From Nitrospiraceae bacterium (GTDB taxonomy: Bacteria > Nitrospirota > Nitrospiria > Nitrospirales > UBA2166): a stretch of 64,000 bases of DNA. Shown one piece after another: positions 4,096 to 49,202 of this stretch. How positions within the stretch are numbered: the first letter of the stretch is position 1; the number at the start of each line of letters is the position of its first letter. A program made the position numbers and the translations under genes. Where the stretch lies: positions 1-64,000 of the forward strand of contig PBSN01000012.1 of NCBI GenBank assembly GCA_002726235.1, written 5' to 3'. Below the pieces are notes generated by a model. It made no database searches and had not been told where the DNA came from. It saw only the letters and a list, made by a program, of their open reading frames with translations.

Positions 4096-4486
4096 GTGTT
4101 GTCTATTCTTTGCTGAGTGAGTGCGCCTATCCTACGCTGCTTGTGAGTGGCTATCATAAGGTAGGGAGGAACGCCCTACTGCTTTTAGCCTCAGCCTGAT
4201 TTTCCAAATGATATCGTCCCTACAAAATGGGGGGAGCAGGGTGGAGCATAAAAGGCTAGAACTGCTCTTGATTCACGTTATAGGCCGACATCAAGATTTT
4301 TGAATCCGATGTGATTGCACGTGAAGAACGCTTCTAAGGTAGCGTCTGACCGAAACGCTTACATATCTCTTGGTATACTTATCATGGTTGATGTTTGCTG
4401 TACATTGTTTAGGAGGTGAAGCCAAAAAGCGTCAAGTTTGTGCTTCGATTATCCGCTGACTGTGTTCCAGTTCTGGAAAGGCTTCC

Positions 4487-5023
4487 CTAAGGAATTTGGG
4501 CTGCTAGCCTTTGTCTATCGATTTGTGTCAGGCCAGTTTCTGTCTGTGGACGATCTGTGACATCGTATATACCATATCCAAAACCAGCAGCGGTTCCGCT
4601 AACAAAAAGCCAGCGCATTATTTCGCATGCAGGACCTCCAGGCACTGCTGCTGCAATGGCCATGCCGATTATTAATCCTCCCAAACCACCCCACACCGTG
4701 CCTTTGGCTATCGACATGACAGGATTTTCTCCGCTTTTCCGAGTGCGATCTTTTCGGGTCATGTCGTCAGTTTGAGTCTCACTTTTCGACGGCTCTTGGA
4801 CCTGACTCGTGTCGTTCATTGCCATGTTCACATTCACGTCAATATCGAGACTGTTGCCATGTTCACTCACAGGTAAAACAAATTCCCCATGAGACTCCAT
4901 GAGGCCTTGTGTGTCTAGAGAAAACACTGAATTGCCATAGTCTTGTGCAAAGCTAAACGGTACCACTAGGCATACACCGAGGACGCAGGTCAAAGCACAC
5001 CAAACCCATCTCACAATATACAT
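4487..5023 (-). CDS. Hypothetical exported/membrane protein with glycine-zipper-like helices
   Basis: Signal peptide ending SFA-Q, GGLGGLIIGMAIAAA and GTAAGFGYGIY hydrophobic segments, GGAGGG RBS. Confidence 0.65.
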   Translation of the reverse strand: MYIVRWVWCALTCVLGVCLVVPFSFAQDYGNSVFSLDTQGLMESHGEFVLPVSEHGNSLDIDVNVNMAMNDTSQVQEPSKSETQTDDMTRKDRTRKSGENPVMSIAKGTVWGGLGGLIIGMAIAAAVPGGPACEIMRWLFVSGTAAGFGYGIYDVTDRPQTETGLTQIDRQRLAAQIP

Positions 5024-5200
5024 CCCTCCATTCTTGCCTTAGCGATTGAACTCAGAACCAATGAATAAAGGACTACACTCTCTCCACGCATGGACTCTCT
5101 CCATCTCATCATTGGATGTCAGACACCCATCTTATTTTACATGCCCAAAAAGGGAAGTGCGCGAAAAAGAGCGCGAGGACTTCAATTGCGAAAATGAAGT

Positions 5201-5243
5201 CAAAACAAACGGGCCACCTCCGAACAGGAAGACAACCCGCTTG
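5201..5243 (-). terminator. Intrinsic terminator-like hairpin
   Basis: Minus strand CAAGCGGGTTGTCTTC-CTGTTC-GGAGGTGGCCCGTTTG, a 16-bp stem with G:U pairs followed by TTTT. Confidence 0.65.
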
Positions 5244-5274
5244 CCGGCACTTAGGATGCCAGTATCTGGTATTT

Positions 5275-5589
5275 ACCTGTTGCTAGAATCCGCCTGTCAG
5301 TGGGTGTTGGATGCGTTGCCCCTTTGCCATGGTAACTGCGGGGTACCCATTTTTGAGCCTTCTTTGCAAAGGCACCTGGATCTGACTCGCGTCATTTGGT
5401 GGTACTGAACAGGCGCTTCAGGCGCCCACTGTTATCCAGGCTGGTGGGAGGCAGCACATGATAGAGCACTCACGTCCAAGCACGGCACAGAAACCATCGT
5501 ACCGCAGGCGGACCTAAATGGCCTGGTGGACTAAGCTCGCTATCCAATAAGCCCTCCTTTCTTTCGACCCCAGGGCTCTCTAGACAGGT
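5275..5589 (-). ncRNA. Candidate large structured RNA (family not recognised)
   Basis: Nested long-range helices (5275-5287 with 5579-5589; 5289-5296 with 5505-5512; CCTGGA/TCCAGG), several local hairpins, GNRA-capped stems (GCGA, GCAA) and G:U pairs that favour the minus strand; no convincing long ORF. Confidence 0.5.
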
Positions 5590-5645
5590 GCACGCCGTCC
5601 GTTGCCCTTGCGACTTTCTGGGTCATGACCGTCGCTTACTTTCAT
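5580..5645 (-). CDS. Putative 21-aa leader peptide MKVSDGHDPESRKGNGRRAPV
   Basis: Strong GGAGGAG Shine-Dalgarno (plus-strand 5652-5658) 6 nt before the ATG; TAG stop at 5580-5582. Confidence 0.4.
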   Translation of the reverse strand: MKVSDGHDPESRKGNGRRAPV

Positions 5646-5831
5646 GCTACGCTCCTCCGTTATGAGTGTCAACAACAGAAATTTGACGTCTTCATGGGCT
5701 TGGGAAGATTGGAGAAGAAGTGGAGGGTGGGGGGGTCGAGTGGATTGGATATGCGGGCATTCACAAGAAAATAAGCGCGGTATTACAAGCGATATTCGAA
5801 ATGCAGTGTTCTCGCGCTGGTCAATGCTTCT

Positions 5832-6560
5832 CTACAGCATGAACTGTATTCCCATCGTCACAGGAATAAGTTGTAATTCATTAATGGTTCCAGCTCCCCG
5901 ATAGTATGATGCTTCTACATAAAGGCTGATGGTGTCGGTCACATCAAAATCCATCCCACCCCCAATGTGAACCATCAGACCATGCTGCTCAATAACACGA
6001 TGGACCCCGATTAATTCCCCCCATCCGACACCGGCAAGTGCATAGGGGTGAATCTTGCTTGTGCCGGGATTGTTCTGAAGGTAAACCTTGCCGTTCATGG
6101 AGGCCACCCCTCCTTTGTCAAAGGCATCTGAAGTATTAATGCCATTTAGTAGAAGAATATTGAGTTCCAAGGCAAAGCGTGGCTTGAAGTGATATCCAAA
6201 TTTCATGTTCCCAGCAAAGCCAGTGTTATGATCTCCGCCTACCGATTCCACAACACTTCCCCCTACGGCTCCATATGATCTGGACTTCCCAAGAGGCACA
6301 TTGCTTGGGTCAGCAGACGACAGAGCAGGAGTTGGTTTTGTTTTCTTTTTTCTCAGGTCATGGGGAAACTGATTTCGGCACGAGTGAAGTATTGCGTCAG
6401 CCGTGACGTTGTTCTGTGTATCCTTCATTGCTTTGATGACACAGTCGTCAAAATTGCGTGGAGCAGACAGAAGCCCAACATCACCAGCAGACTGTGCGAG
6501 TATGGTGCTTGTAAATGTGCTTACGAACAGAAAGACTCCGGCACAAAAGATGCTTTTCAT
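5832..6560 (-). CDS. Outer-membrane 8-stranded beta-barrel protein with N-terminal two-Cys helical domain
   Basis: Signal peptide, DDCVIKAMK...LHSCRNQFP segment, barrel motifs (FGYHF, HPYALAGVGWG, GGGMDF, terminal MGIQF). Confidence 0.75.
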   Translation of the reverse strand: MKSIFCAGVFLFVSTFTSTILAQSAGDVGLLSAPRNFDDCVIKAMKDTQNNVTADAILHSCRNQFPHDLRKKKTKPTPALSSADPSNVPLGKSRSYGAVGGSVVESVGGDHNTGFAGNMKFGYHFKPRFALELNILLLNGINTSDAFDKGGVASMNGKVYLQNNPGTSKIHPYALAGVGWGELIGVHRVIEQHGLMVHIGGGMDFDVTDTISLYVEASYYRGAGTINELQLIPVTMGIQFML

Positions 6561-6747
6561 GTCTTGATCATCCCTACAGCGTGGTTTCTAATACTTATTC
6601 CAGCTGAGGTATCAAATTTGGGGACTGCCAAGGCTACAGGAAGAGGAGAGCCTCAACGAAGAAACCACTCTCGCCTAGATTAAGGTTCAAGATGCTTAAA
6701 TGGAAGAGTTTGGCATCGAGTGGGATGTCCCAAAGGTTGACAGATCT

Positions 6748-9276
6748 TCAACCATCACCATCAGGACAGCCAATGTTCAAAAACTCACACTCAAGCGCAT
6801 CAGGGGTAAGGGGAGGTTCGAGTGTAGGCGCGGACTCAGCAGGCTCGGAGTTGATAGGTGAGACCTCGGCAAAGATGGCGATTACCGACCTATTCTGAAG
6901 CAACGGAACAAACTGGCAGGTTCCGCTCCGCAAATCATTGGCGATGAGGGTAACGTTACATGCGTCGCCGCTCCATCCCGTGAACACAGAGCCCGGATCA
7001 GCCGTGGCCGTGAATAGGACGGTCGCGTTGGATGAAAAATTGCTGGCGCATCCTGTTGCCGTGATGTCAGTTGACACACATGCGATGCCTTCTGGAGCGC
7101 TAGTGATCATACCACTTCCACCTCCGGCACGAGTGACGGTCACGAGGGGGAAACTATCAGGAGTGGCGGTAATACTGGGGGCATCCTCGATCACTTGTGC
7201 CACGGTGTTATTGTGTATGTTTCCTTCGCCGACAACAGGATCAAAGGTGGCAATTGCAAACATGCCAGTAACAGCTCCTAGTCCCAAGACTGTAATATTT
7301 TTGTGTTCCTCTTCACCGGCCGCGACGTCTTCTTCGATGATGATGGTTTGGAGAAGGGCATCCCGCTCATCAAGGTTTTCATCGGCAGACAAGAATAGGG
7401 AGAGAGCAAAGGGATTACTGGCTACTTCTGTCCCGATATTGCTGATTGTTATTTTGACTTTGAGTTTGTTGCCGGTTTCTTTTGTCTTCACTTTCAGTTT
7501 CGTGATGGTCACGGCAAGGTCAGGCATAGACTTCACGAACATCTCCGCGGTGGCGAGGCTGCCAATGCCCCCTGTCAGGAGAAGTTGTCCACTCTGAAGC
7601 AAGGTGGCTGTGTGCAGTTGACGCGGTGTCGTCATCGGAGTGCTGGCGGTGAAGGAGGCGTTCGCAGGATCAAATGTCTCCGTGGCTGCGTTATCGCCAA
7701 CCCCGCCTGAGAGAAGCACGTGTCCGCTTGGAAGTAAGGTGGCCGTATGGAGTTCGCGTGCCGTCGTTAGAGTGCCGATCGTGAGGAATGATTCGGCGGT
7801 CGGGTCAAATAGCTCGGCTGTCGCGGCTGCCGTAGCCTCCTGACCGATTCCGCCTGCGATAAGGACGGTGTCGTCAGGCAACAACGTGGCGGTATGGAAA
7901 CTCCGTGCGGTCACCAACTCGCCGGTTGCGGTAAAGGACCCCGTGTGTGGGTTGAATACTTCGGCGGTGGCAAGTGCGAAGATATCACCTAGACCGCCGG
8001 TGATGAGGACGCGGCCATCTGCTAGCAGGGTGGCGGTGTGGCGACTTCGGGCGGTAGTCATATTGCCGGTTTTGGTGAATAATCCGATAGTCGGGTCGAA
8101 CACTTCGGCGGTGGCAAGCGCGCGGCCGTCTTGGCTGATTCCGCCGGTGATAAGGATGCGGCCATCAGGCAACAGGGTGGCGGTATGGCGGTTTCTGGCG
8201 GTCGTTAACTCTCTGATCAGCGATATGAATGTCGCCTTGTCTGGGTCGAACACTTCGGCGGTGGCGAGCGTGTGGCCGTCTTGGTTGATTCCGCCTGCGA
8301 TTAGCACGCGACCGTCTAACAACTGCACTGCGGTGTGCTCGTGGCGAGCCACGGTCATGGTTCCCGTCGGGAAAAACGACTCAAACACAGGGTCAAATAG
8401 TTCGGCTGTCGCGCCGCCGCCAAACCCTCCGGCAATGAGAACCTGTCCCGTCGATAAGAGGGTTGCCGTATGATTCTGGCGAGCTGCGCTCATGCTGTTT
8501 GTTGCTCGAAAGCTTCCTTCAAGCAATGGAAGTCCCGGCGGCGCAGGGTCAAACGTCGCTGTCACGGTACGCTTGGCACTCATCGTCACCTGGCATTGTT
8601 CCATTCCAGAGCAGCCGCTCCCTCTCCATCCGGAAAATATTGAGCCGGACGTGGCCGTCTGATTGAGTGTGATCACTGTGTCCACGTCATAGGATGCGGC
8701 ACAAATTCCAGTAGAGCAACTGATCCCTGATGGTGACGATGTCACAGTCCCATCGCCATCCCCGTCTGTGGTCACGAACAGGATGATCTGGGGTGTATGC
8801 ATCAGCTCAAATGTTGCGGCGACAGCCTGATTCTCCGTCATTGTCACTGTACAGATGCTGGTGCCGGAACAGCCCCCCCCACTCCAGCCCGTAAACGTCG
8901 AACCCGCCGCCGGGGTTGCGGTCATTGTGATTACCGTGCCTACGTCATAGGTTGCGGTACAGATATCCCCACAACTAATGTCTGTTGATAACGTGATGTC
9001 TTTTGCGGAGGTCACCGTTCCTGTGCCTGTGCCTGCTGGCGTTAAGGTCAAGATGAGTGCTGCTGCAGGAGTGGCAGACAACGCGAAGAATCCGGCGACG
9101 AGAACAATGCCCGGAAGAATACGTCTCACGAGGTTGCTCCGCGACGGGAACCACGTCGCGCGAACGACCTGATGTAGCAACGCTCGGGATTTTTGTTTTT
9201 GGTGTTGGTCCCTAAGATCACCATCAGGCACGTTTTGAAATCGTTTTGCTTTTCGCTCACACATCATATCGTCCAA
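6748..9276 (-). CDS. Secreted kelch-repeat protein with InlB B-repeat-like and CARDB-like domains
   Basis: Six AR.xHTATLLxDGRVLIxGG...TAE.FDP kelch repeats, three GxVTSxPxGISC...FTGWSGxxC repeats, PDLAV...NNT CARDB-like domain; start codon uncertain. Confidence 0.85.
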   Translation of the reverse strand: MDDMMCERKAKRFQNVPDGDLRDQHQKQKSRALLHQVVRATWFPSRSNLVRRILPGIVLVAGFFALSATPAAALILTLTPAGTGTGTVTSAKDITLSTDISCGDICTATYDVGTVITMTATPAAGSTFTGWSGGGCSGTSICTVTMTENQAVAATFELMHTPQIILFVTTDGDGDGTVTSSPSGISCSTGICAASYDVDTVITLNQTATSGSIFSGWRGSGCSGMEQCQVTMSAKRTVTATFDPAPPGLPLLEGSFRATNSMSAARQNHTATLLSTGQVLIAGGFGGGATAELFDPVFESFFPTGTMTVARHEHTAVQLLDGRVLIAGGINQDGHTLATAEVFDPDKATFISLIRELTTARNRHTATLLPDGRILITGGISQDGRALATAEVFDPTIGLFTKTGNMTTARSRHTATLLADGRVLITGGLGDIFALATAEVFNPHTGSFTATGELVTARSFHTATLLPDDTVLIAGGIGQEATAAATAELFDPTAESFLTIGTLTTARELHTATLLPSGHVLLSGGVGDNAATETFDPANASFTASTPMTTPRQLHTATLLQSGQLLLTGGIGSLATAEMFVKSMPDLAVTITKLKVKTKETGNKLKVKITISNIGTEVASNPFALSLFLSADENLDERDALLQTIIIEEDVAAGEEEHKNITVLGLGAVTGMFAIATFDPVVGEGNIHNNTVAQVIEDAPSITATPDSFPLVTVTRAGGGSGMITSAPEGIACVSTDITATGCASNFSSNATVLFTATADPGSVFTGWSGDACNVTLIANDLRSGTCQFVPLLQNRSVIAIFAEVSPINSEPAESAPTLEPPLTPDALECEFLNIGCPDGDG

Positions 9277-47492: not shown

Positions 47493-49202
47493 ATGAGTCT
47501 GAACATCGAACGCAGAACATACGTTGATCACTACGGTCCGTCGTGTGGCGATCGTATTCGATTGGCGGATACCGAACTGTGGATTGAGGTTGAAAAGGAT
47601 TTCAACGTCTATGGTGATGAGGCTAAGTTTGGTGGAGGAAAGGTGATTCGAGATGGCATGGGCCAATCCTCTGGTGCAACGGATACCCCAGATTTGGTCG
47701 TCACCAATGCAGTCATTCTTGACTACAGCGGTATTGTCAAAGCTGATATTGCGATCAAGAATGGAAAAATCTCCGGCATCGGCAAGGCTGGGAATCCCGA
47801 CACCATGGATGGAGTAACCGCAGGGATGATCATTGGAGCCGGCACTGAAATTCTTGCGGGCGAAGGCATGATTGTGACTGCTGGGGGTATTGATAGTCAC
47901 ATTCATTTTATTTCGCCACAGCAGATCAATGAGGCCTTTTATTCTGGCGTCACCACAATGATTGGTGGTGGAACCGGGCCGGCAACTGGAACCAATGCAA
48001 CAACCTGTACTCCCGGCCCATGGAATATCCAGAAAATGTATCAATCGGTTGAAGCCTTTCCCTTGAACTTCGGGTTTCTCGGCAAGGGGAATGCCTCCCT
48101 TCCGCAGGCCCTTGATGCACAGGTTGAAGCTGGGGCCATGGGTTTGAAACTGCATGAAGATTGGGGAACGACACCAGCAGCTATCGATTGCTGTTTAGGC
48201 GTTGCTGATCGCTATGACGTCCAGGTAGCCATTCATACTGATACGCTCAATGAGGCGGGATTCGTAGAAGACACTATCGCGGCATTCAAGGGGAGAACCA
48301 TTCACACCTATCACACTGAAGGCGCGGGTGGGGGACATGCTCCGGATATCATTAAAGTGTGTGGACAGTCGAATATATTGCCGTCCTCCACTAATCCCAC
48401 GATGCCGTTTACCGTCAACACCATGGATGAGCATTTGGACATGCTCATGGTCTGTCATCATTTGGACCATCGTGTGCCTGAGGATGTTGCCTTTGCGGAA
48501 TCGCGGATTCGTGCTGAGACGATCGCGGCTGAGGACGTGCTGCATGATATGGGTGCGTTCAGCATTATGGCATCAGATTCTCAAGCGATGGGACGGGTAG
48601 GCGAGGTTATCTGTCGGACATGGCAGACAGCGGATAAAATGAAACAACAGCGAGGACGGTTGGCGGATGAGCAGGGGGAGAACGACAACCTGCGGGCAAA
48701 ACGCTATGTGGCCAAATACACCATTAATCCTGCAATCGCGCATGGCGTGAGTGATGTGATCGGATCAATTGAAGTGGGAAAGATGGCGGATTTCGTGCTG
48801 TGGAAGCCAGCGTTTTTTGGCGTGAAACCAGAGGTGATCGTGAAGGGTGGGTTTATTGCGGGTGCATTGATGGGCGATCCGAATGCGTCGATCCCCACAC
48901 CTCAGCCATGCTTCTACCGCCCAATGTTCGGTGGGTTTGGGCGTGCAATCCAAGCTACGTCTGCACACTTTGTGTCGCAAGCCGCGGTGAGTAGCGGAAG
49001 CTTGAACTCGATGGGGTTACAGAAAGAGCTCATTGCCGTAAAGCATTGTCGAAATATCGGGAAGCGTGATATGAAACTGAATGATCTGCTTCCCAACATT
49101 GCAGTCGATCCGGAAACCTATCATGTGACTGTTGACGGTCAACACATCACCTGTGAGCCTGCCTCGCGCCTAGCTTTGGCCCAGCGCTACTTTCTTTTTT
49201 GA
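47493..49202 (+). CDS. ureC: Urease subunit alpha
   Basis: [48 protein letters not shown] nickel-site motifs. Confidence 0.98.

Follow-up and report, generated by a model that had tools for sequence, protein, structure and literature searches.

A free-standing structured RNA of about 390 nt, probably of a new family, in a marine Nitrospirales genus

Introduction

The raiA RNA is described in PMC12968392 as a free-standing structured bacterial non-coding RNA (ncRNA) of unknown function that is very abundant in cells and occurs in >2,700 species, while OLE, ROOL and GOLLD RNAs are reported in PMC12286853 to form homo-oligomers. Ms1, as characterized in PMC4191392 and PMC9130861, is highly expressed in stationary phase and binds RNA polymerase, although its length and sequence differ from those of 6S RNA. 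Here, we analysed a locus that we compare with these systems, namely the minus strand at 5201-5660 of a 64,000-nucleotide (nt) stretch of DNA (hereafter the window; bases 1-64000 of contig C12) from a Nitrospiraceae bacterium, for which a first-pass annotation had suggested a novel ncRNA, a ribozyme-like element or a large cis-regulatory leader. With a probability of roughly 0.85, we conclude that the locus is genuine and independently expressed and encodes, as a free-standing gene, a structured ncRNA of about 390 nt that belongs to a new family. The source genome (G000) comprises 1.87 Mb in 27 contigs and is 90.65% complete. The other four species of the same genus of marine Nitrospirales are labelled G001-G004, and a full-length metagenome copy (L052), 99.9% identical to the G002 locus, was used as the third (G002-type) copy.

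Results

Transcript evidence and gene limits

An index of public sequencing runs was queried with a 571-base sequence, and 20 runs contained all or part of it. Six of the 20 were RNA libraries that held 50-68% of the query's sampled words, which is about the share of the query occupied by the RNA; some 14 DNA runs contained 48-88% of the words. The contigs of four RNA runs, from four marine or vent studies, were placed on window positions 4400-6700; low-share and other runs were not counted as evidence. Each of the four yielded one contig that covered the RNA alone, at an identity of at least 99%. These contigs are listed below with their word depth, a single value for the whole contig that reflects the RNA level poorly.

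Run X11: contig 5244-5625, word depth 5419
Run X15: contig 5236-5628, word depth 1176
Run X16: contig 5245-5627, word depth 32
Run X7: contig 5216-5637, word depth 5.65

The contig ends agreed within about 10 bases on each side, where contaminating DNA would not stop, and in all four studies the RNA libraries contain the stretch as a discrete, assembled molecule. Both flanks (4400-5169 and 5709-6700) were bare in three runs, which is no proof of their silence; in X11, two short contigs lay over the downstream gene at depths of 3.7-3.8, compared with 5419 for the RNA contig. The X11 contig end at 5244, which is the last base of an invariant 3' hairpin, abutted 23 non-genomic, adapter-like letters that we take to be the tail of the Illumina read-1 adapter. 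If they are, the junction hints that many X11 fragments end exactly at 5244, and it would fit a minus-strand RNA with its 3' end at 5244 in a dUTP-type stranded library.

The following signals delimit the gene:

5672-5644, minus strand: sigma-70-like promoter, with TTGACA (5672-5667), a 17-base spacer and TAGCAT (5649-5644)
5637-5244, minus strand: predicted mature RNA of about 394 nt, its 5' end 7 bases past the -10 hexamer and its 3' end at the foot of the terminal hairpin
5262-5244, minus strand: 3'-terminal hairpin H19, CUGGCAUCCUAAGUGCCGG, invariant, with a 7-pair stem and the loop CCUAA
5243-5202, minus strand: intrinsic-terminator-like element seen in the fold, composed of hairpin H20 (5243-5206) and a U-tract (5205-5202)

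The promoter matched at 10 of 12 positions and was the sole promoter-like site found by a promoter scan of 5000-5900; TTGACAC and a TAGnnT hexamer were kept in all three full-length copies. The 16-base core of the 3' hairpin was identical in G000, G004 and G002, and also in G001, which is otherwise without the RNA. The terminator hairpin consists of 16 pairs, with 95.8% of the cells paired across the copies and a double change at one position; it was not flagged by a simple terminator scan. The first-pass annotation had placed a terminator at 5201-5243, in good agreement with the hairpin and U-tract at 5202-5243. Homology between G000 and the non-syntenic G002-type copy spanned exactly 5687-5202 of the window, from upstream of the -35 element to the end of the U-tract.

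Transcription would thus start near 5637 and run to the terminator near 5205, and the 3' tail would then be trimmed back to the invariant hairpin, with its end at about 5244. A primary transcript of about 433 nt, shortened to about 394 nt, is proposed because 5637 lies 7 bases past the -10 hexamer and 5244 ends the invariant hairpin. The terminator hairpin and U-tract are apparently present in the primary transcript and missing from most of the mature RNA. A structured RNA is located where the annotation had put one, in a predicted mature form (about 5637-5244) that is longer than the interval of 5589-5275 described at the outset.

Conserved fold

The consensus fold was computed with RNAalifold on the three full-length copies (G000, G004 and the G002-type copy). 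Its 125 pairs fall into 20 helices that extend from the start site through the terminator, and 94.1% of the 375 cells paired, against 33-40% when the partners were slid by 1-3 columns. Twelve pairs were changed on both sides, compared with 5.3±1.7 in 500 partner shuffles, none of which reached 12, and with 0-2 in the slid controls. As an independent control, columns were shuffled 100 times within classes of equal gap pattern and variability. The consensus energy of the mature RNA was -96.0, compared with -74.8±4.5 for these column shuffles (best shuffle, -85.7), and the structure conservation index (SCI) was 0.69, compared with 0.58±0.03 (maximum, 0.65). Invariant columns made up 156 of 218 paired and 87 of 187 unpaired columns. 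The minus-strand sense assigned by the first-pass annotation was borne out by two measures: the consensus energy was -122.0 on this strand and -88.0 for the reverse-complemented alignment, and 61 of the 375 paired cells were G:U, which would be A·C on the opposite strand. Folded singly, the plus strand of 5201-5660 gave a z-score of +1.24, i.e., it folded worse than its own shuffles.

Upstream of H19 and H20, the fold comprises three domains:

5631-5565, minus strand: 5' domain, helices H1-H4, from RNAalifold and pair counts
5557-5525, minus strand: hairpin domain, helices H5-H6; the loop is an invariant GAUA, and the 5' strand carries a Shine-Dalgarno-like AAGGAGG
5523-5281, minus strand: core domain, in which H8 (5512-5501 with 5301-5289) encloses H9-H18 and a weaker outer helix, H7, spans 5523-5281

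In the 5' domain, H1 and H4 were 100% paired across the three copies, and H1 showed three pair types at one position. The H4 hairpin (5601-5580) paired in every copy, and its loop carries an invariant UGCA inside the palindrome GUGCAC (5589-5594). H8, which closes the 224-nt core with 12 pairs, was likewise 100% paired in every copy and showed one double change and four single-sided ones; compensatory changes were found in H11, H13 and H15. The core forms a closed stem, long and irregular, with an internal loop of 14/15 nt; in G004, a 12-column gap removes the 5' side (5471-5458) of this loop, the largest internal one. The invariant unpaired runs were UGCA, GAUA, ACAGU, CUGAA, AAUA and CCUAA.

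Several further features of the fold were recorded. Two palindromes were kept in all three copies, GUGCAC in the H4 loop and GGUCAUGACC (5620-5629) near the 5' end; either could support self-contact between RNA molecules, although palindromes of such length are not unlikely by chance. Loop-loop pairing between CCUAA and UUAGG (at about 5516) was considered and dropped, being lost in G002, while a contact of CUAAG with an invariant CUUAG (at about 5536) is possible, with sides that never vary. At position 5290, the contigs of X15 and X16 have a plus-strand T in place of C, a change from G to A in the RNA that falls on the second pair from the 3' end of H8, with no compensating change listed; this is probably a population variant.

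Every helix in the first-pass annotation was present in the window where it had been placed, and six of the nine were kept in the relatives. Counted as pairs formed in G000, G004 and G002, respectively, the conserved ones were UCCGCCUG/CAGGCGGA (8/8, 8/8, 8/8), CCUGGAU/AUCCAGG (7/7, 7/7, 6/7), GGCGC/GCGCC (5/5, 5/5, 5/5, including a compensatory change), GUG-C-UUGGA/UCCAA-CAC (8/8, 5/8, 8/8), CGGUACG/UGUGCCG (7/7, 7/7, 5/7) and a GCAA-capped hairpin (6/6, 4/6, 6/6). The three that were not retained were UGCCUC/GGGGCA (6/6, 4/6, 4/6), UGAC/GUCA (4/4, 1/4, 3/4) and the proposed outermost helix, 5579-5589 with 5275-5287 (11/11, 7/11, 7/11), in place of which the local hairpin 5601-5580 is formed.

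Distribution and sequence constraint

Three distinct full-length copies were found, in three of the five species of one genus. A BLAST search of 41 related genomes with the stretch gave matches in four, including G000: three of the four other species of the genus and none of the 36 further genomes of the order. The identities to G000 were 74% over the whole length in G004 and 76% in G002, where the match was cut by a contig end, while G001 matched over the last 100 bases. A metagenome scan returned three stretches, of which one was identical to the window, one was identical to the G004 locus and one was 99.9% identical to the G002 locus, here with the RNA complete. In a scan of all genome contigs for the 16-base motif of the 3' hairpin, 37 stretches were obtained; three were the relatives, and the other 34, which shared at most 18-29 bases, are taken to be chance matches. 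A covariance model (R1) of the 224-nt core (5289-5512) recovered the three copies from 151 genomes of the order, plus a match in G060 at E 0.0055 that was taken for chance, and found only G000 in a 151-genome sample of the phylum. The pattern of hairpin plus terminator, with up to three mismatches, gave two foreign matches in 401 phylum genomes, compared with six in the reversed control, i.e., a chance level. Two scans of viral contigs returned six and zero stretches, none of which carried the RNA. The RNA is single-copy in G000.

The mature RNA showed BLAST identities of 73.4% (G000-G004), 76.5% (G000-G002) and 71.6% (G004-G002). The corresponding values at four-fold sites, taken from genes of the neighbouring or housekeeping loci (leaving out short open reading frames (ORFs) overlapping the tmRNA and RNase P genes), were 68-74, 58-62 and 44-49%, and 33-39% for G000-G001. 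In G001, the last ~100 bases were 75% identical despite the saturation of neutral sites. By these identities, constraint on the RNA is clear in both of the more distant pairs and barely visible in the closest.

The three-way alignment contained 1- and 2-base insertions or deletions at ten places inside the RNA. Because of these scattered changes, no reading frame is conserved: none was common to all three copies on either strand, and a protein-coding gene was accordingly rejected as an identity for the locus. One frame was considered individually:

5547-5470, minus strand: UUG-started frame of 25 codons, 8 nt past AAGGAGG, covering 78 of the 394 nt of the RNA

Its UUG is common to all three copies, and the frame and stop are shared by G000 and G004; in G002, one inserted base puts everything past codon 16 out of frame. 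AAGGAGG and UUG lie inside the conserved helices H5 and H6, and the frame is probably not translated.

Gene context

The RNA gene sits within an 808-base gap separating two minus-strand ORFs:

5832..6560, minus strand: protein with the outer-membrane beta-barrel domain PF13505 (OMP gene), upstream of the RNA
4487..5023, minus strand: 178-aa small secreted protein without a Pfam family, about 180 nt downstream of the RNA

The order of OMP gene, RNA and small-secreted-protein gene is syntenic in G000 and G004, with the flanking proteins 75 and 64% identical, respectively, and close orthologs of these two G000 genes occur in G004 only; an ortholog of the downstream gene was not found in G001, G002 or G003. 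The G002-type copy is flanked by Rieske-domain and CCG-domain genes, both on the opposite strand. The RNA thus persists as one unit in altered surroundings.

A remnant in G001 (L004 1500-1650, minus strand) preserves the final 100-150 nt of the RNA gene, from the 3' strand of H8 through the invariant hairpin to the terminator; no counterpart of the 5' strand of H8 was found in that genome. The remnant is next to a tRNA gene and directly behind an orphan 174-aa ORF, which takes the place of the RNA body, starts like a signal peptide and is preceded by a good Shine-Dalgarno sequence. For this ORF, neither a Pfam family nor a homolog in the genus's four other genomes was found. That the 3' hairpin module survives downstream of an unrelated orphan ORF points to a use of its own, e.g., in transcript stabilisation or processing. 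Downstream of the remnant, a gene for a 363-aa Sel1-repeat protein (L004 430-1230) is built of DNA units of about 108 bases that are 67-76% identical.

Elsewhere in the window, an 842-aa ORF just upstream of the OMP gene (6748-9276, minus strand) encodes Kelch repeats, InlB B-repeat-like domains and CARDB, and is likely a surface protein. A match to 5_ureB_sRNA (RF02514; 104 bits) was observed at 47648-47934 on the minus strand. We take this family to be an RNA antisense to Helicobacter ureB; if that holds, the match most likely reflects conserved coding sequence for the urease beta subunit and not a small RNA (sRNA).

Comparison with known RNA families

With the 4227 models of Rfam 15, four matches were obtained in the whole window at the gathering score (three tRNAs and 5_ureB_sRNA), none of them at 5201-5660. 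At E<=10, the region of 4900-5950 gave chance-level matches only, to Ocean-V (18.5 bits against a cut-off of 75; 5134-5210) and RF_site3 (E=2), both within 5134-5212 and outside the RNA body. Nothing relevant was found in the homologous loci L052 and L002. OLE, ROOL, GOLLD and raiA have Rfam models, none of which matched the stretch or the homologous loci. RNase P RNA, tmRNA and SRP RNA, which had been excluded in the initial annotation, gave full-score matches on other contigs of the same genome (309 bits on C20, 191 bits on C25 and 64 bits on C7, respectively), so that their exclusion here holds.

The 6S model (RF00013) had no match in the stretch at E<=10, and none in G000 or in the four other genomes of the genus; it found 6S in only five of 14 control genomes, so its silence says little. 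In a neighbouring family (f2, e.g., L059-L064), nine of nine genomes gave sub-threshold matches of about 74 nt and 28-45 bits at positions 59-134 of the 6S model. A search for 6S by synteny yielded two weak tblastx regions only; the flanks of the f2 matches gave no usable orthologs in G000. 6S RNA was also rejected by shape, the fold being a 394-nt multi-domain structure rather than a rod of about 180-200 nt with a conserved bubble.

Other identities were rejected on their own features. A riboswitch or other cis leader does not fit the opposite-strand neighbours of the G002-type copy or a downstream gene with an ortholog in G004 only. Hfq (PF17209) was not found in G000, which at 90.65% completeness does not prove its absence, and the RNA is probably not an Hfq-dependent sRNA. 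A CsrB/RsmZ-type sponge was dismissed, given that CsrA (PF02599) was not found in G000 and that the copies contain 6, 9 and 7 GGA motifs against 8.3, 8.5 and 9.4 expected. An omega RNA or reRNA of IscB/TnpB was likewise discarded: the RNA is single-copy, and its neighbours are OMP, Kelch-repeat and two family-less proteins, or Rieske- and CCG-domain proteins. Complementarity or identity of more than 16 nt was not found elsewhere in G000 (best match, E 0.14). No report of such an RNA in this lineage was found in the portions available to us of the literature on Nitrospirae/Nitrospirales ncRNA, metatranscriptomes, and deep-sea and hydrothermal plumes, and a term search of PMC10579370 returned no passage relevant to it. 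We regard the family as new because neither sequence nor structure models place it in a described one and all membership features tested failed; the novelty concerns the family and not a demonstrated mechanism.

The option of a novel ncRNA is thus supported on all four points that the first-pass annotation had listed as able to overturn it. No known Rfam family was matched at the gathering score or at E<=10 in 4900-5950, nor in two homologous loci; the homolog-based fold surpassed its shuffles, while the single-sequence fold was only marginal (z-score, -1.82); compensatory changes were present among the three copies; and the plus-strand ORF 5046..5408 was not conserved, with no same-frame counterpart in the copies. 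Of its other options, the large cis-regulatory leader fails on the G002-type copy, which has no co-oriented downstream gene.

Discussion

Several points weigh against a real, independently expressed ncRNA of a new family. The single-sequence fold of the minus strand at 5201-5660 had an energy of -171.8 kcal/mol, compared with -160.9±6.0 in 100 dinucleotide shuffles, five of which equalled it; at a z-score of -1.82, this is only marginally above chance and no more than suggestive. The structure evaluated by the pair statistics was predicted from the same three sequences, and three distinct sequences permit no formal covariation statistic. The metatranscriptome check proposed in the annotation provided ends, since contigs from four studies cover just the RNA stretch, but assembled contigs show neither the strand nor the true level. 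In the G000-G004 comparison, the RNA is 76.8% identical by global alignment, barely above the 68-74% of four-fold sites, and it changes far faster than tmRNA (97.5 and 93.8%) or RNase P RNA (93.7%) in the same genomes. The RNA was not found in G003, a 73%-complete genome. It is dispensable or replaced in at least one species, because G001, which is 98% complete, retains only its last ~100 nt.

Among the alternatives, a functionless transcribed remnant or stable by-product, conserved in appearance through recent species divergence, is very unlikely. The narrow distribution, fast evolution, near-synonymous identity of G000 and G004, and loss or truncation in G001 would all be expected of such a relic, yet the G002-G004 RNA is 72% identical where four-fold sites are at 44-49%, compensatory changes occur, structure conservation lies above every shuffle, and the homology of a non-syntenic copy breaks off sharply at the promoter and at the terminator. 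The odds are equally poor for an mRNA or dual-function RNA producing a small peptide from the UUG frame at 5547-5470: the frame shift after codon 16 in G002, the burial of AAGGAGG and UUG in H5 and H6, and the coverage of merely 78 of 394 nt outweigh the AAGGAGG kept 8 nt before UUG in all three copies and the frame and stop shared by G000 and G004. Hardly credible at all is a cis-acting leader (riboswitch or attenuator) for the downstream gene 4487..5023, an idea that draws on the terminator-ended RNA lying about 180 nt upstream of a co-oriented small-secreted-protein gene in G000 and G004. It is contradicted by the G002-type copy, with both neighbours unrelated and on the other strand; moreover, the downstream ortholog is missing from what was found in G001, G002 and G003, no Rfam riboswitch matches, and none of the contigs in the four RNA runs joins the RNA to that gene.

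Two trans-acting roles deserve more weight, and each is improbable. A 6S/Ms1-like decoy that sequesters RNA polymerase, replacing a canonical 6S undetected in the genus, would agree with the distinct contig in RNA libraries, as seen with housekeeping regulatory RNAs, with the silence of RF00013 in five of five genomes of the genus beside weak partial matches in nine of nine f2 genomes, and with the closed stem of the core, which is long and irregular and has an internal loop of 14/15 nt; Ms1, as presented in PMC4191392 and PMC9130861, illustrates polymerase binding by RNAs of other length and sequence. On the other hand, the molecule has 394 nt and separate 5' domains instead of a single rod, G004 lacks the 5' side of the large internal loop, this RNA and a detectable 6S are both missing from G001, and a 6S model that matches five of 14 control genomes is uninformative when silent. 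A trans-acting base-pairing regulator of unusual size, with an invariant loop as its mRNA seed, stands at a comparably low level. Such a regulator would be free-standing with its own promoter and terminator, and UGCA, GAUA, ACAGU, CUGAA, AAUA and CCUAA offer invariant unpaired runs; against it, Hfq was not found in G000 (90.65% complete), no complementarity or identity above 16 nt was found elsewhere in that genome (best E 0.14), and the size and some 18 conserved helices go far beyond the needs of a seed-bearing sRNA.

We therefore return to the free-standing structured ncRNA and its possible function. It would act in trans, and its 3' hairpin would block exonucleases and stabilise the RNA. 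A stable RNA working through its shape, and not a seed regulator or ligand sensor, is favoured because the gene has a strong-looking promoter of its own and appears as discrete contigs in four studies, because the 3' end is protected and stems are more conserved than loops, with a few invariant loops (UGCA within GUGCAC, GAUA, CUGAA and CCUAA), and because the RNA is independent of its neighbours and dispensable in one species. By analogy with 6S/Ms1, raiA and OLE/ROOL/GOLLD, we tentatively suggest a stable protein-binding or self-assembling scaffold or decoy RNA, a mechanism with somewhat less than an even chance; within that class, a polymerase decoy would take the lesser part. What base-pairing regulation leaves of the rest falls to other functions or to none. 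It is possible, if rather doubtful, that the RNA is the founding member of a new functional class of lineage-specific large RNAs of about 390 nt and some 18 helices. In that case, the complexity would be explained by a task open only to a structured molecule, such as catalysis, a role in a dedicated ribonucleoprotein or self-assembly via the palindromic loop, and the RNA would be no variant of 6S-type or base-pairing regulation.

To our knowledge, bacterial RNAs this large and complex without an assigned family are rare, and earlier ones (OLE, GOLLD, ROOL and raiA) each raised new questions on what RNA is capable of. In the present case, RNA contigs from four independent marine or vent studies stop at the ends of the molecule, which is an unusually direct sign of a real natural RNA. 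The host belongs to an uncultured marine Nitrospirales lineage with small genomes (about 1.9 Mb), and RNA biology appears undescribed for it in the portions of the literature available to us. The narrow distribution limits both comparative analysis and general reach.

Compared with the systems described at the outset, the RNA shares with raiA the character of a free-standing structured bacterial ncRNA of a few hundred nt and differs in distribution, with three species of one genus against the >2,700 species given for raiA in PMC12968392. Like OLE, ROOL and GOLLD, it is a large, many-helix, free-standing RNA with no known catalytic or regulatory mechanism, and GUGCAC in its invariant hairpin loop could in principle, to judge by sequence, form a loop-loop contact. 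It is smaller than these RNAs (about 394 nt), resides in a different host group and gene neighbourhood, and has no Rfam match. With 6S and Ms1, it has in common a free-standing gene and a long irregular closed stem, in a genus where no canonical 6S was detected; in contrast to 6S, it is no single rod, it has twice the length (6S being about 190 nt, with a 187-position model) and its largest internal loop is unconserved. Overall, the RNA is nearest by kind to raiA and OLE/ROOL/GOLLD, nearest by possible role to 6S and Ms1, and a member of none of them.

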